From: Octopus vulgaris
Taxonomy: Eukaryota
Assembly: GCA_951406725.2 (NCBI GenBank)
Contig: OX597825.1
Span: 13,392,001 to 13,456,000 of the forward strand
Direction: 5' to 3'
DNA: 64,000 nucleotides
The notes under the pieces are model-generated. The model was not told the origin of the DNA. It saw only the letters and a program-made list of their open reading frames with translations, and did not search any database. Positions 2,893 to 49,710 of this stretch are shown in pieces (the first letter of the stretch is position 1; the number at the start of each line of letters is the position of its first letter). A program made the position numbers and the translations under genes.

Positions 2893-3846
2893 GTCGGCGA
2901 GCTGGCCGAAGCGTGAGCACGCCGGACGAAGTGCTTAGCGGTATTTCGTCTGTCGCTATGTTCTGAGTTCAAATTTCGCCGAGGTCGACTTTGCCTTTCA
3001 TCCTTTCACGGTCGAGAAATTAAGTACCAGTTACGCACTGGGGTCGATGTAATCGACTTAATCCGTTTGTCTGTCCTTTGTTTGTCCCCTCTGTGTTTAG
3101 CCCCTTGTAGGTAGTAAAGAAATGGAATTAGACATTTCGTTTGTCTTTACGTTCTGAGTTCAAATACCACGGAGGTCGACTTTGCCTTTCATCCTTTCGG
3201 GGTCGATTAAATAAGTACCAGTTACGCACTGGTGTCGAAGTAATCGACTTAATCCGTTTGTCTGTCCTTGTTTGTCCCCTCTGTGTTTAGCCCCTTGTAG
3301 GTAGTAAAGAAATAGAAATAGGTATTTCATCTGTCTTTACGTTCTGAGTTCAAATTCCGCCGAGGTCGACTTTGCCTTTCATCCTTTCGGGGTCAATTAA
3401 ATAAGTAACAGTTACGCACTGGTGTCGATGTAATCGACTTAATCCGTTTGTTTGTCCTCTCTGTGTTTAGCTCGTTGTGGGTAGTAAAGAAATAGGTATT
3501 TCGTCTGCCATTACGTTCTGAGTTCAAATTCCGCCGAGGTATACTTTGGCTTTCATCCTTTCATGGTCGATTAAATAAGTACCAGTTACGCACTGGGGTC
3601 GATGTAATCGACTTAATCCGTTTGTCTGTCCTTGTTTGTCCCCTCTGTGTTTAGTCCCTTGTGGGTAATAACGGAATAAGTATTTCGTCTGCCGTTACGT
3701 TCTGAGTTTAAATTCCGCCGAGGTCGACTTTGCCTTTCATCCTTTCGGGGTCGATAAATTTAGTACCAGTTGCGTGCTGGGGTCGATGTAGTCGACTGGC
3801 CCCCTCCCATAAAATTTCGGGCCTTGTGCCTAGAGTAGAAAAGAAT
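2893..3846 (+). mobile_element. Family-A tRNA-derived SINE tandem multimer: head + four ~165-190-bp core/tail-1 units + terminal core/tail-2 unit
   Basis: Head is ggcgagctggccgaagcgtgagcacgccgg. Each unit has a B-box-like gagttcaaattcc, the core gaggtcgactttgcctttcatcctttcggggtcgat..aagtaccagt and the tail ttgtcccctctgtgtttagccccttgt.ggtagtaaagaaat. The last unit ends in aaaatttcgggccttgtgcctagagtagaaaag. Confidence 0.9.
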
Positions 3847-4151: not shown

Positions 4152-4370
4152 TAATAAATTTTAGGGTAGCAAAAAATTCTAGAAAAATTCTCCGCTACCA
4201 GCAGTCAAGTGAGAAAGAAAAAATAGTCAATAGACAATATAATATACATTCAAACATATAAGGGATGGTTATAATAGGATATCCGACTCACTAGAAAGAG
4301 CAGCTAAACTCCAAACCACTAATAGTTGTAATTCTGAAATGGAAAGAGAAATAAAAACGTTTACCCTCTC

Positions 4371-4466
4371 CTCTCTGGACTATGCATAGTTTCGGCAATC
4401 TTTTTGCAAATAAATTAAATTAAATTAAATTTATTTACCACTGGCGTTGCACTCATCAGCAGAAAA
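4371..4466 (-). ncRNA. Type I hammerhead ribozyme motif (intact core)
   Basis: Minus strand reads ttttctg-CTGATGA-gtgcaa..(AT-rich hairpin)..ttgcc-GAAAC-tatgcata-GTC-cagagag. Stem I is 7 bp with G:U pairs, stem III is the palindrome actatgcatagt, and the cleavage triplet is GUC. Confidence 0.8.
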
Positions 4467-4491
4467 GCCAAGGACTACCATATATTCACGA

Positions 4492-4718
4492 GGCGAGCTG
4501 GCAGAAACTTTAGCGCGCCGGGCGAAATGCTTAGCGGTATTTCGTCTGTCGTTACGTTCTGAGTTCAAATTCCGCCGAGGTCGACTTTGCCTTTCATCTT
4601 TTCGGGGTCGATAAATTAAGTACCAGTTACCCACTGGGGTCGATGTAATCGACTTAATCCGTTTGTATGTCCTTGTTTGACCCCTCTGTGTTTAGCCCCT
4701 TGTGATTAGTAAAGAAAT
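4492..4718 (+). mobile_element. Family-A SINE monomer with 17-bp target-site duplication
   Basis: Full head-core-tail-1 ending in aaagaaat; flanked by atatattcacgaggcga at 4480-4496 and 4719-4735. Confidence 0.92.
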
Positions 4719-5769: not shown

Positions 5770-7100
5770 TTCTGAAGCGTTGTCAACGGGAAACTTATAT
5801 TCCAAGACTAAACCAGACTCTCAGTGAAGATTATTGAAATCGAAGAGTGCAGATGGGAATGATACTTGTTAAGAAATGTAGAAGATTCGTACTTTCTAGA
5901 AAAGATTGACTGGAGTGACGAAACCACATTGAAATCAAATAGCTCAATTAGCCACCATAATTGCACCTTCTAGAGTGCTGAGAATTTCAGAGGGCCGCCA
6001 TGTTAAGTTACCATTCTGTAGTTTATCATCAAAACGATTGACTGGTGATTTTATTTATTTATTTTTTTTTTTACTGTAATCTGACCAGCTCCGTTTACTT
6101 GAAGTTGCTGCGACATTGTGTCATGCTGACCATTCAAGAGAATTCGAAGATGTGGAGTTTTATTTCCAGCAAGTTCGGGCAACTCCACAGTACCCTGCAA
6201 ACATATGAGGCTACAAAGGCGGCGAACTGGCAGAAACGTTAGCACGCCGGGCGAAATGCGTAGCCGTATTTCGTCTGCCGCTAACGTCCTGAGTTCAAAT
6301 TCCGCCGAGGTCGACTTTGCCTTTTATCCTTTCGGGGGACCATTAAATAAGTACCAGTTACGCACTGGGGTCGATGTAATCGACTTAATCCGTTTGTCTG
6401 TCTTTGTTTGTCCCCTCTGTGTTTAGCCCCTTGTGGGTAGTAGAGAAATAGGTATTTCGTCTGCCGTTACGTTCTGAGTTCAAATTCCGCCGATGTCGAC
6501 TTTGCCTTTCATCCTTTCGGGGTCGATAAATTAAGTACCATTTACGCACTGGGGTCGATATAATCGGCTTAATCCATTTGTCTGTCCTTGTTTGTCCCCT
6601 CTATGCTTAGCCCCTTGTGGGCAATAAAGAAATAAGAAATGTTTACACGCCGGACGAAATGCTTAGCAGTATTTCGTCTGTCTTTACGTTCTGAGTTAAA
6701 ATTCCGCCGAGGTCGACTTTGCCTTTCATTCTTTCGTTTCGGGGCCAATAAATAAATACCGGTTTCGTACTAGGGTCGATCTAATCGACTGGTTCCCTCT
6801 CCAAAAATTTCGGACCTTGTGCCTAGGTTAGAAAGAATATTTGAGACTACATTCATGATATTTTTTTGTCAAACAAGGTGAACTGAATGAAGAAATTCAG
6901 TAGAATCCCCACCGCGTGCATATACCTCACACCACTAGGCTTTTGTTTTTAGATTTAAGGAATCTAAAACGATGAATTATACGACATAAACCGGCAAGTT
7001 TCGATGAAGTGAAACCATTATTGATTCGATGTTTCGATGAATTGAAACCATTCGATCAATTGAAAGCCATTAAAAACGAACGCACACAAATACTGAACAA
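5770..7100 (+). pseudogene. Decayed Tc1/mariner-superfamily transposase, interrupted by the SINE array at 6218-6838
   Basis: Broken translation: LKRCQRETYIPRLNQTLSED*NRRVQ..FLEKIDWSDETTLKSNSSISHHNCTF (WSDE first catalytic-Asp motif). After the SINE, tcagtagaatcccccaccgcgtgcatatacctcacaccactaggcttttg resembles the PPRSPDLTPLDF motif. Confidence 0.7.
6218..6838 (+). mobile_element. Family-A SINE trimer
   Basis: Head ggcggcgaactggcagaaacgttagcacgccgggcg, two tail-1 units, final unit with tail-2 (aaaatttcggaccttgtgcctaggttagaaag). Confidence 0.9.
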
Positions 7101-7946: not shown

Positions 7947-8148
7947 CAGAGTTCGCTAAAATAACGTATACACACTTTAGGAAAGGAAAAAATCTGTATA
8001 AATATTTTAATTCAGTGTTATTGCAATATATTCAGTGCTGATAAAACATGGAAAGCGGTGTCTATATTTATAGAGGTATCTACACAAGTTAAATATTTAC
8101 ACAGATTTTTTCCTTTCCTCAAGTGTGTATACACTTTTGGCGTGGACT
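7947..8148. mobile_element. Tc1/mariner-type MITE with ~55-bp imperfect TIRs in TA context
   Basis: gtatacacactttaggaaaggaaaaaatctgtataaatatttt versus aaatatttacacagattttttcctttcctcaagtgtgtatac; TA flanks. Confidence 0.7.
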
Positions 8149-8165
8149 ATATATATATATATATA

Positions 8166-8321
8166 TGGATCTTTCCTTTTCCTATGTTTCTGATGAAGAG
8201 CTCCGCTCGAAACGTTAAACTCTCCTTCTTCCCTTCCTTCCTGAGCGTCCAATAACACTATACTTGTTCCACGTCCTCGCATTGTTGTGTTTTCTCTTTG
8301 TGTTTTCATGTTCGGATTAAC

Positions 8322-8322
<1 letters not shown>
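8166..8322 (+). mobile_element. Short hammerhead-bearing element (Penelope-like solo terminal repeat, family P1) in (TA)n
   Basis: Near-identical to 40954-41107; contains the hammerhead at 8186-8220; ends in ggattaac+(TA)n. Confidence 0.75.
8186..8220 (+). ncRNA. Minimal type I hammerhead ribozyme motif
   Basis: gttt-CTGATGA-a-gagc-tcc-gctc-GAAAC-GTT-aaac: canonical core, 4-bp stems I and II, stem III reduced to the palindrome ACGT as described for Penelope-associated hammerheads. Confidence 0.75.
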
Positions 8323-8401
<79 letters not shown>

Positions 8402-8477: not shown

Positions 8478-8918
8478 GAACGTAAAGACAGACAAAATAC
8501 CCATTTCTTTACTACCCGCAAGGAGGCTAAACACAGAGAGGACAAACAAGGACAGACAAAGGGATTAAGTCGATTACATCGACCCCAGTGCGTAACTGGT
8601 ACTTATTTAATCGACCCCGAAAGGATGAAAGGCAAAGTCGACCTCAGCGGAATTTGAACTCAGAACATAAGGACAGACGAAATGCCTATTTCTTTACTAC
8701 CCACAAGGGGCTAAACACAGAGAGGACAAACAAGGACAGACAAACTGATTAAGTCGATTATATCGACCCCAGTGCTTAACTGGTACTTAACTTATCGACC
8801 CCGAAAGGATGAAAGGCAAAGTCGACCTCGGCGGAATTTGAACTCAGAACGTAACGGCAGACGAAATACTGCTAAGCATTTTCGCCCGGCGTGCTGACGA
8901 TTCTGCCAGCTCGCCGTC
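8478..8918 (-). mobile_element. Family-A SINE dimer plus partial third unit
   Basis: Reverse complement of the head (ctgccagctcgcc) at ~8903-8915 and two core/tail-1 units. Confidence 0.9.
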
Positions 8919-14401: not shown

Positions 14402-14608
14402 CATACATACATACGTACATACATACATACATACATACATACATACATACATACATACATACATACATACATACATACATACATACATACATACATACAT
14501 ACATACATACATACATACATACATACGTACATACATAGTGGTAAGAAACCCAACAGGGCTGATTATAGAGAATATATAGACATATCTATCCATACACATA
14601 TATATGAT

Positions 14609-14642
<34 letters not shown>

Positions 14643-14719
14643 CATGCATATATATAGATATACAAATGTAGATATGTACCTATATATACATATGTACATA
14701 TATACATATACCTATATAC

Positions 14720-14759
<40 letters not shown>

Positions 14760-14765
<6 letters not shown>

Positions 14766-15206
14766 AATATAAGAGAGTGGTCACTATATGGCTCACTCTA
14801 GCACCAGTTAATCCAAAAGGTTTCAACCACAAAAATACATGTTTCCCATGAAAGTCAGTACGATTGTTAGCTCACACGGACAGGGCAAATAAAAAATAAC
14901 AAAAATACAGATTATTTTGGGACAATTGTTTCGCTATTAATGAATTAAATGTAATATTACTTACAAAAAATCCACTTGTAGCTCCTCAGCCAAAACTATC
15001 AGGATGAAATCCACTCAATCACACGCCAGACTTTACCATAACGATAAATACACGTGTGGTTCAATTGATTACATCCGTTGCCCTGTCCGTGTGAGCTAAC
15101 AATCGTACTGACTTTCATGGGAAACATGTATTTTTGTGGTTGAAACCTTTTGGATTAACTGGTGCTAGAGTGAGCCATATAGTGACCACTCTCTTATATT
15201 TATTTT
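14760..15206 (-). mobile_element. Foldback element: perfect 129-bp inverted repeats around a 189-bp spacer carrying a hammerhead; Penelope-like inverted terminal-repeat structure in (TA)n
   Basis: 14760-14888 is the exact reverse complement of 15078-15206; (TA)n on both sides. Confidence 0.8.
14915..14995 (-). ncRNA. Type I hammerhead ribozyme motif (intact)
   Basis: Minus strand reads ttttgg-CTGAGGA-gcta..(42-nt loop)..tagc-GAAAC-aatt-GTC-ccaaaa. Stem I is 6 bp, stem II is 4 bp, stem III is the palindrome acaattgt, triplet GUC. Confidence 0.85.
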
Positions 15207-15430
15207 ATATATATATATATATATATGCATATATACATATATATATATACATGCATATTTATAAATACATAAAATATGTTTGTGTGTATATATATATATA
15301 TACGTAAGTTCAGCAAAAATTTAGATTCAAATGAATATGGTACTTAATTTAGATGCACCAGAATTTTGAATGGTGTTATCCATAAAGATCGTGGGGTGAT
15401 TATTTTGAATATATATATATATATATATAC

Positions 15431-18555: not shown

Positions 18556-18640
18556 ATGAAGTGTACCGTTGAGTTTACTTGTTGGATTTTGTACTACCTG
18601 ACAATTTTACAGGCCTTACTTCTTACTTTTGCACATGCAG
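18556..18640 (+). CDS. First coding exon of a secreted or membrane protein (signal peptide MKCTVEFTCWILYYLTILQALLLTFAHA, phase-1 intron follows)
   Basis: ATG in gccaagATG context (A at -3); basic n-region, hydrophobic h-region and A-H-A cleavage motif; ends at CAG|GTAAAT after 28 codons + 1 nt, a common layout for signal-peptide exons; unique, non-repetitive sequence. Confidence 0.75.
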
Positions 18641-40914: not shown

Positions 40915-41107
40915 TACCGTTGGCGAATTTTTTTCCTCTGTCTTCCCTTCTCTGGATCTTTCCTTCTCCTATGTTTCCGACGAAGAGCTCCGCTCGAAAC
41001 GTTAAACCCTCCTTCTTTCCTTCATTCCTGAGCGTCCAATAATACTACATTTGTTCTACGTCCTCGCGTTGTTGTGTTTTTTTTGTGCTTTCATGTTTGG
41101 ATTAACT
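40915..41107 (+). mobile_element. Family-P1 hammerhead-bearing element (core mutated to CCGACGA at 40977)
   Basis: Near-identical to 8166-8322 but with a longer 5' end; ends in ggattaac+(TA)n. Confidence 0.75.
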
Positions 41108-41125
41108 ATATATATATATATATAT

Positions 41126-41203
<78 letters not shown>

Positions 41204-49029: not shown

Positions 49030-49710
49030 AAGCTGTGTGGTTAAGAAGCCCATTTTGCAACCACGTGTTTGCAGGTTCAGTCCCACTGTGTGGCACCTTG
49101 GGCAAGTGTTTTCTACTATAATCTTGAGCACAGCAATAACTTGTAAGTGAATTTAACAGACGGAAACTGTATCGAAGCTCATCACATTTATAGTTGTGTA
49201 TGTGTAGGTGTGTGTGTGTGTGTGTTTCCCTACCCTACTTGACAATCGGTGTTGGTTTGGTTATGTCCATGTAACTATTAATTTCGGCAAAAGAATCCGA
49301 TACATAAGTACCAGACTTAAATAAAAAATAAAATAAAATAACAAAGAGTGGTTGTATACTGTCAACATAACGTGACAGTCCCGTAAAGGGAATTACACCA
49401 CCGCTATTTAGCCCTAGGAAGCATCGACGACGCTTCCTGTCGGCTTTGACACATTTCCTGTGTCCTTATATTTGCGAAGGGGAGGCAAGCAGCGCCACCA
49501 GCTAGGACTAGCAACCTGAAGACATGCATGTTTCTGGGTCTTGCCCGTCATCAGTCCAGGTTAGTAAGGCCCGCTAGCGAAGATACCTGCTAAACCTTCA
49601 TAAAATAAATTAAATTAAATAAATGCCGGGGATGATCTGTTCGGCTAAAAACCTTGAAGGATGTAACCCCATAATGGATACCATCCTACGACTAAAATAC
49701 GTGAGAGATA
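49030..49710 (+). mobile_element. Diverged family-B SINE interrupted at an (AAAAT)n linker by a ~260-bp structured element (49342-49600)
   Basis: SINE head/body 49030-49320 resumes at ~49620 (ggggatgatctgttcggctaaaa). Confidence 0.75.
49513..49562 (-). ncRNA. Type I hammerhead ribozyme motif (intact core)
   Basis: Minus strand reads aacctgga-CTGATGA-c-ggg-caaga-ccc-a-GAAAC-atgcat-GTC-ttcaggtt. Stem I is 8 bp (one G:U), stem III is the palindrome acatgcatgt, triplet GUC. Confidence 0.85.

Follow-up and report, generated by a model that had tools for sequence, protein, structure and literature searches.

A probable truncated Penelope-like insertion with an inverted second copy and a long-stem-II hammerhead motif in Octopus vulgaris

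The analysed window, a 64-kb stretch of Octopus vulgaris DNA (contig OX597825.1 of assembly GCA_951406725.2, positions 13,392,001 to 13,456,000), is rich in microsatellites and contains no N. Within it, positions 14760–14888 are the reverse complement of 15078–15206 over 129 of 129 bases, and the two arms enclose a loop of 189 bases, giving a foldback of 447 bases in total. TA tracts lie at both outer sides of the foldback, one at 14572–14759 and the other at 15207–15302. When the 20 bases of flanking TA are included, the exact arm match extends to 149 bases, beyond which the flanks diverge, and the outer ends of both arms fall on the same element base, each on (TA)n. No ORF was found at the locus, nor any ATG-led frame open up to the 3' end of the element, which was sought as a Penelope/Poseidon-like ORF start. 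The 318 bases at 14760–15077 are absent from the rest of the 64-kb window as a second copy. An earlier note on this DNA, made from the letters alone, had described two identical inverted 129-bp arms enclosing 189 bp, embedded in (TA)n and without an ORF, and this description was borne out in each respect.

The loop carries a type I hammerhead motif on the minus strand (14914–14996), detected by descriptor, Rfam and fold, with C3 at 14989 (CUGAGGA), G12 at 14932 (GAAA) and C17 at 14921 (GUC). Stem I pairs 14996–14990 with 14920–14914 through six Watson-Crick pairs and one G-U, the stem II region spans 50 bases (14982–14933), and stem III is an 8-base palindrome (14929–14922). The predicted cut between 14921 and 14920 lies 161 bases from the 3' end of the element, and C3 lies 229 bases from it. 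In the predicted fold, the long stem II consists of a four-pair base helix with G10.1-C11.1, an internal loop, an eight-pair helix, a second internal loop and a five-pair hairpin. According to the computed energies, stem III would form two pairs and a tetraloop in a monomer and eight pairs between two copies. Immediately 5' of the ribozyme, an imperfect hairpin of 75 bases (15002–15076, minus strand) begins at the inner end of the right arm; its folding energy is -27.1 kcal/mol (z -3.57), with 0 of 200 shuffles equally stable, and the plus strand of this region also folds (z -3.06). The complete type I hammerhead claimed for the minus strand therefore stands as a motif, with the core, the GUC site and stems I to III in type I order. 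The word "intact" is, on sequence grounds, applicable to the hammerhead motif alone and not to cleavage activity. The 50-base stem II had gone unmentioned in the earlier note.

The strict hammerhead descriptor gave one match in the real window and none in 5000 shuffled loops or in 30 shuffled windows. Compared with shuffles, folding of the ribozyme region gave a z of -2.83 on the minus strand and -1.00 on the plus strand. A scan with Rfam Hammerhead_1 (RF00163), proposed earlier as a check, gave a divided answer: the expected interval, 14915–14995 on the minus strand, was matched at E 2e-5 with all 45 model positions covered and a 38-base insertion in loop II, but the 28.6 bits fall below the gathering score of 34, and the match appeared only when the search was restricted to 186 bases. 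At the Rfam gathering level, no hammerhead was matched in the whole 64-kb window, and a 561-base search, allowing E up to 10, likewise gave no hammerhead among its 23 Rfam matches. The microRNA and pestivirus matches of that 561-base search arise from the TA tracts and were discarded. The sub-gathering score is probably due to the long stem II. In addition, a strong splice-donor-like motif was observed in loop II on the minus strand (14964–14934), with an AG 31 bases on in the 3' strand of stem II; PLEs retain introns near their ribozymes (PMC4209133), and this GT-donor/AG pair was rejected as an intron, 31 bases being judged too short.

The motif shares with the hammerheads of Penelope-like element (PLE) pseudo-LTRs the CUGANGA and GAAA core, the G10.1-C11.1 pair and the palindromic stem III (PMC4209133), and it differs from PLE hammerheads in having no unpaired base between A9 and G10.1 (PMC4209133; PMC8557442 File S2). 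PLE hammerheads mostly occur as single motifs within truncated copies, some as opposite-strand pairs, and have a palindromic helix III and low activity (PMC4209133). The closest in layout are the entries of the Hydra-clade table (PMC8557442 File S2), which have the same place near the 3' end and the same (TA)n neighbourhood: the hammerhead lies in sense about 100–430 bases from the 3' end in most rows, and (TA)n is given in 20 of 21. The stem II region, with its 50 bases and nested fold, differs from the roughly 10–25 bases of most rows in that table. PMC8557442 describes two spike-moss elements whose ribozymes have long loops, together with eight Naiad "half cores" at 35–50 bases, and a long stem II is thus uncommon, not unprecedented.

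Public sequencing runs were compared with 28 words sampled from 14760–15077, and at least half of the words were found in 20 of the 24 runs listed (10 studies, 7 organism labels), none of these being recorded as RNA. Four of the 24 runs were aligned to 14889–15206, namely X2 and X5 (DNA contigs, two organism labels), X18 (contigs, guessed to be RNA) and X23 (raw reads). Matching contigs numbered 1360 in X2, 722 in X5 and 64 in X18. By identity, the X2 contigs comprise 551 at 99% or above, 570 at 95–99%, 214 at 90–95% and 25 lower. Summed contig depth, which reaches 1.5 million in X2, was read as a sign of abundance and not as a copy number. The repeat family is abundant, fairly young and common to several organism labels. 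The foldback had been called very recent from its zero arm divergence; this remains unshown, because 0 of 129 differences only bounds the divergence below 2.3% at 95%, a bound that resembles the spread of the family itself (1121 of the 1360 X2 contigs at 95% identity or above). One X2 contig extends 35 letters past the element end. In the raw-read run X23, 0 of 12.9 million reads fell on this abundant repeat despite its carrying the species label of the best holders, and the run is no test of the presence of the family.

Searches elsewhere for a longer copy yielded no homologue in two viral-contig scans or in two prokaryote-genome scans. Three metagenome loci were considered as homologues and rejected as chance, having only 22–31 bases in common with the element, in unrelated coding DNA. 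The published literature searched contained no paper on this repeat family, which may be held in Repbase, Dfam or the O. vulgaris repeat library, collections outside that search. In the published material searched, no identity was found with octopus PLE families or with the Naiad, Chlamys or Hydra consensus, and the Hydra-1_Obim ribozyme is a different sequence. Nine short element motifs were compared with the PMC8557442 supplement; eight were absent from it and one matched in an unlike context. By eye, the 3' ends of Naiad_Ovul and Naiad_Obim given there look unlike the element. The O. vulgaris genome is composed of PLEs to 6.83%, in 190 families, 31 of them recently active (PMC13282606).

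The family contigs reveal how the pieces of the foldback belong together. At the inner end of the arm (before 15078), ribozyme-side letters as at 14889 onward stand in at least 11 X2 and at least 8 X5 contigs (agreement 0.95 and 0.97), and ribozyme followed by arm is therefore the natural order of the family (14888|14889). Past 15077, non-arm sequence is present in at least 9 X2, at least 9 X5 and at least 4 X18 contigs, so that the join at 15077|15078 in the window is a break in the family sequence. Since the left arm naturally continues the ribozyme and the family runs past 15077, the locus consists of two truncated pieces. The main copy (14760–15077, minus strand, read from 15077 to 14760) is the 5'-truncated, 318-base 3' end, or pseudo-LTR region, of the repeat family, and its ribozyme-side letters adjoin the arm inner end in the family contigs. 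The second copy (15078–15206, plus strand) is the exact inverse of 14760–14888 and corresponds to the last 129 bases of the element, truncated shorter and placed head to head with the main copy; its orientation is taken from the family contigs. The proposal that the foldback is itself the unit of an ORF-less, non-autonomous element finds no support, since the family runs past 15077, and "ORF-less" describes the stub only.

These contigs also bear on another reading, suggested by the long perfect inverted ends in TA and the lack of an ORF: a DNA transposon of foldback or MITE type that has inverted repeats of 129 bases at its ends and has captured a hammerhead. Contigs leaving the inner end of the arm go to the ribozyme side at the agreement given above; the second class expected from a terminal repeat on the right is missing among the rows listed, and the loop sequence continues elsewhere at 15077. 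Terminal inverted repeats are not a feature of the family; the transposon reading is largely refuted, and we consider it highly improbable.

A separate concern is whether the right arm could be an artefact of assembly or library preparation, produced by a chimeric join at a high-copy repeat. None of the 24 pieces listed, out of a set with 2157 more, bridges 15077|15078; in addition, the identity between the arms is complete, the repeat occurs at very high abundance, and structures of this kind trouble assemblies (PMC8557442). A private junction is, however, expected to be rare among many copies, and its remaining unbridged is expected; moreover, the flanks are unmirrored beyond the 20 bases of TA, the outer ends of both arms coincide at one base and lie on (TA)n, the window is free of N, and the layout matches that of real PLE insertions. 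We therefore allow only a small chance that the right arm is artefactual.

Taken together, the locus is probably a truncated Penelope-like 3' end with an inverted copy of the same end, a real feature well above chance. The hammerhead has the sense orientation and lies close to the element's 3' end, as in pseudo-LTRs, with the element direction given by the family contigs, and the insertion lies in (TA)n at both ends at this one locus, as in Neptune, Hydra and Naiad. PLE insertions show strong 5' truncation, often with an inverted 5'-truncated copy beside the 5' end, and their targets are (TA)n for Naiad and Hydra, with a microsatellite bias for Neptune (PMC8557442). The locus shares with truncated insertions of endonuclease-bearing (EN+) PLEs the head-to-head inverted copy with 3' ends outward, the strong 5' truncation and the microsatellite target that would hide any duplication (PMC8557442; PMC3846280). 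It differs from them in the lack of an ORF and in its junction, where the imperfect 75-base hairpin takes the place of a perfect palindrome (PMC8557442; PMC3846280). In comparison with EN+ PLEs, for which a 30–40-base tail and a partial tandem arrangement are optional, no tail is definable here, both arms ending at the same base. Both the Penelope-like terminal repeat with a type I hammerhead and palindromic stem III and the inverted partial repeat, as suggested in the earlier note, thus find support, the former in motif and layout and the latter in the 129-base inverted copy.

The (TA)n target and the complete hammerhead make a clade of Neptune or Hydra type likely. Canonical hammerheads are found in all PLE clades except Naiad and most Chlamys, and the complete motif here contrasts with the lack of a canonical hammerhead in Naiad (PMC8557442). 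The PLE assignment is made by layout: for the RT and GIY-YIG domains by which strict membership is defined, no Pfam match was found in the 148 of 187 filtered window ORFs that were scanned, where three weak, unrelated matches fell below the cut-off, nor in the three short frames of the element. An arm frame read inward had appeared GIY-YIG-like; it was discarded, matching no Pfam family at E up to 10 and running antisense to the ribozyme.

The lack of an ORF is also compatible with a non-autonomous family in which every copy is ORF-less and depends on borrowed PLE enzymes. Such a retrozyme-like or pLTR-only element would exceed about 350 bases, and the locus would be a truncated inverted insertion of it. 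Animal retrozymes are type I hammerhead repeats of 150–450 bases (PMC7229834), many of them monomers, and they derive from pLTRs (bioRxiv 10.64898/2026.07.22.740005). The element resembles the animal non-LTR retrozymes of both papers in being ORF-less, low in GC and a few hundred bases long with a type I hammerhead, and the family sequence is visible for only 30 bases past the break. In contrast to these retrozymes, the locus has one hammerhead and an inverted layout, with no head-to-tail tandem at the locus or elsewhere in the 64 kb. A head-to-head truncated copy is known for PLE insertions, whereas the word "inverted" does not occur in the excerpt of PMC7229834. A non-autonomous family is accordingly regarded as unlikely.

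We consider the locus likely to be a dead, doubly truncated insertion of an endonuclease-bearing PLE, with pieces of 318 and 129 bases head to head. In such an insertion, the GIY-YIG nuclease of the element would nick both strands of the (TA)n tract, and each free end would prime reverse transcription from one start site at the 3' end of the element. Both cDNAs would stop early, at 318 and 129 bases, and end repair would join them. This end joining would yield identical arms and no visible target duplication: the tract at 14572–14759, at the 3' end of the main copy, is the likely target site, and in the tract at 15207–15302, where the inverted copy has its 3' end, the repeat would mask any target duplication. 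A purified PLE protein cuts AT-rich DNA on both strands and extends both of them, using the same internal start sites (PMC11167929). Priming on both nicked strands, with two short cDNAs and an end join, is the route that we favour by a narrow lead over even chances, and a foldback or template switch by one polymerase is an appreciably less probable alternative. PMC3846280 favours self-priming at junction palindromes. At 15077|15078, no clear microhomology was found, and for a self-priming reading none is present unless a 3-base deletion is assumed.

Variation within the family was compared with the predicted fold. Nine variable substitution sites are listed for 14905–15003, of which five are unpaired (N7 included), three keep the pair and one breaks it. 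The free core position N7 is changed at 58% of depth in X2, 37% in X5 and 74% in X18, and is the only varying core site in the two DNA runs. The conserved core base A15.1, counted among the three pair-keeping sites, is changed at 4% and in X18 only. In stem II, the family variants are unpaired or pair-preserving, the compatible changes being one-sided; a G-U to A-U change in the extension, which keeps the pair, reaches 41% in X2, 6% in X5 and 27% in X18. The pair-breaking change lies at 14994 in stem I (6% in X2, 4% in X5 and 40% in X18), and the variant table lists no compensating partner for it. The compensating letter is seen at the end of one X18 contig, the two changes not being on one molecule. 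At 15001, the letter of the window differs from nearly all the depth of the family. This pattern, which is not a covariation test, would fit selection acting on the ribozyme of the parent element.

The energy of stem III was computed as +2.4 kcal/mol for the monomer hairpin and -6.4 kcal/mol for the self-duplex. Stems I and II pair with a probability of at least 0.95 in the isolated 99 bases and about 0.7 in the loop; in the 318-base unit, the probabilities are 0.05 for stem I and 0.58 for stem II, and in the full foldback about 0.15. Because the monomer stem III is predicted to be unstable, the lone copy would be expected to cut poorly. The suggestion that a transcript could self-cleave is consequently not favoured by the model, given a monomer stem III at +2.4 kcal/mol and stems I and II at about 0.15 in the full foldback. 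Among published PLE hammerheads, a minimal one on its own showed no cutting and dimers cut at a low level (PMC4209133), and in another study PLE hammerhead cutting occurred only with protein and was dispensable for insertion in vitro (PMC11167929). In the parent element, the hammerhead would cut the tandem precursor RNA as a dimer, with two palindromic stem IIIs paired, or with the help of protein.

Beyond this locus, a relaxed descriptor identified four hammerhead-type motifs with a palindromic stem III in the window, with C3 at 4459 (minus), 8190 (plus), 14989 (minus) and 49554 (minus). The expectation from shuffled windows is 0.01 per window, with a motif in 1 of 100 shuffles, and the motifs at 4459, 8190 and 49554 have no Rfam match. 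The motif at 4459 (4367–4467, minus strand) is a long-stem-II type I hammerhead of an unrelated family. Its stem I has eight pairs, its stem II region of 58 bases contains an AT-rich inner hairpin, its stem III is a 12-base palindrome and its site is GUC; upstream, the sequence is interrupted by a SINE-like repeat at 4492. The motif at 8190 is a minimal PLE-type hammerhead of another family, which sequence comparison revealed in two 90%-identical copies on the plus strand (8166–8342 and 40953–41127), the second with one core base changed. Both copies begin close to the motif and terminate on (TA)n some 110 bases beyond it. The motif at 49554 (49509–49563, minus strand), found by the descriptor in a single window copy, is of type I, with a 10-base palindromic stem III and a stem I of up to nine pairs.

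Further features were observed around these motifs. Just upstream of the motif at 8190 lies an imperfect inverted repeat of 167 bases (7966–8132) whose 42-base outer arms are 95% identical. A short motif at 14820–14813 (minus), about 50 bases before the end of the present element, recurs at 8314–8321 (plus), where it precedes the (TA)n end of the 8190 family; it may reflect chance, or a start site plus tail. The SINE-like repeat of 184–190 bases, which we take to resemble octopus SINEs, forms tandem arrays of 2 to 4.6 units at 2940–3797, 6266–6634 and 8478–8869 and has many dispersed copies; no tRNA was found in it by ARAGORN. On the plus strand, an ATG-led, hydrophobic, signal-peptide-like stretch of 28 codons followed by a GT donor (18556–18640) represents a candidate exon. 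Its ATG at 18556 lies 3350 bases past the right arm, in agreement with the earlier placing of the foldback about 3.3 kb upstream of a first exon, which is an exon candidate only. Pfam identified no further exon among the window ORFs scanned (148 of 187). The ribozyme is on the minus strand and the candidate exon on the plus strand, and the ribozyme therefore would not cut the RNA of the candidate gene.

The locus itself is ordinary, a retroelement stub of an already described shape. The family, young and abundant and showing here identical arms and a sharp junction, nevertheless offers material for the study of how PLEs form head-to-head inversions, whose origin, by priming on both strands or by foldback, is named as unresolved in PMC8557442. 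A transcript reading through either strand would give a 129-pair duplex; situated 3.3 kb from a candidate exon, it could, if transcribed, become a substrate for RNA editing or for silencing by small RNAs. What sets the locus apart, as far as sequence can tell, is its long stem II, which also occurs in the unrelated motif at 4459 (58 bases) and is thus present in two unrelated families within the 64-kb window (14989 and 4459). With a stem II of 50 bases, short-loop descriptors or Rfam thresholds would undercount hammerhead motifs. As a speculative and rather doubtful extension, the lineage may hide a class of long-stem-II hammerheads, with structured insertions of 50–60 bases under selection that are missed by standard descriptors and Rfam and are carried by a young, high-copy family across several species. 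Cleavage could then be licensed by the nested helix, acting as a protein-binding or switching module, and a class of this kind may underlie the "half-core" motifs of supposedly hammerhead-less PLE clades.
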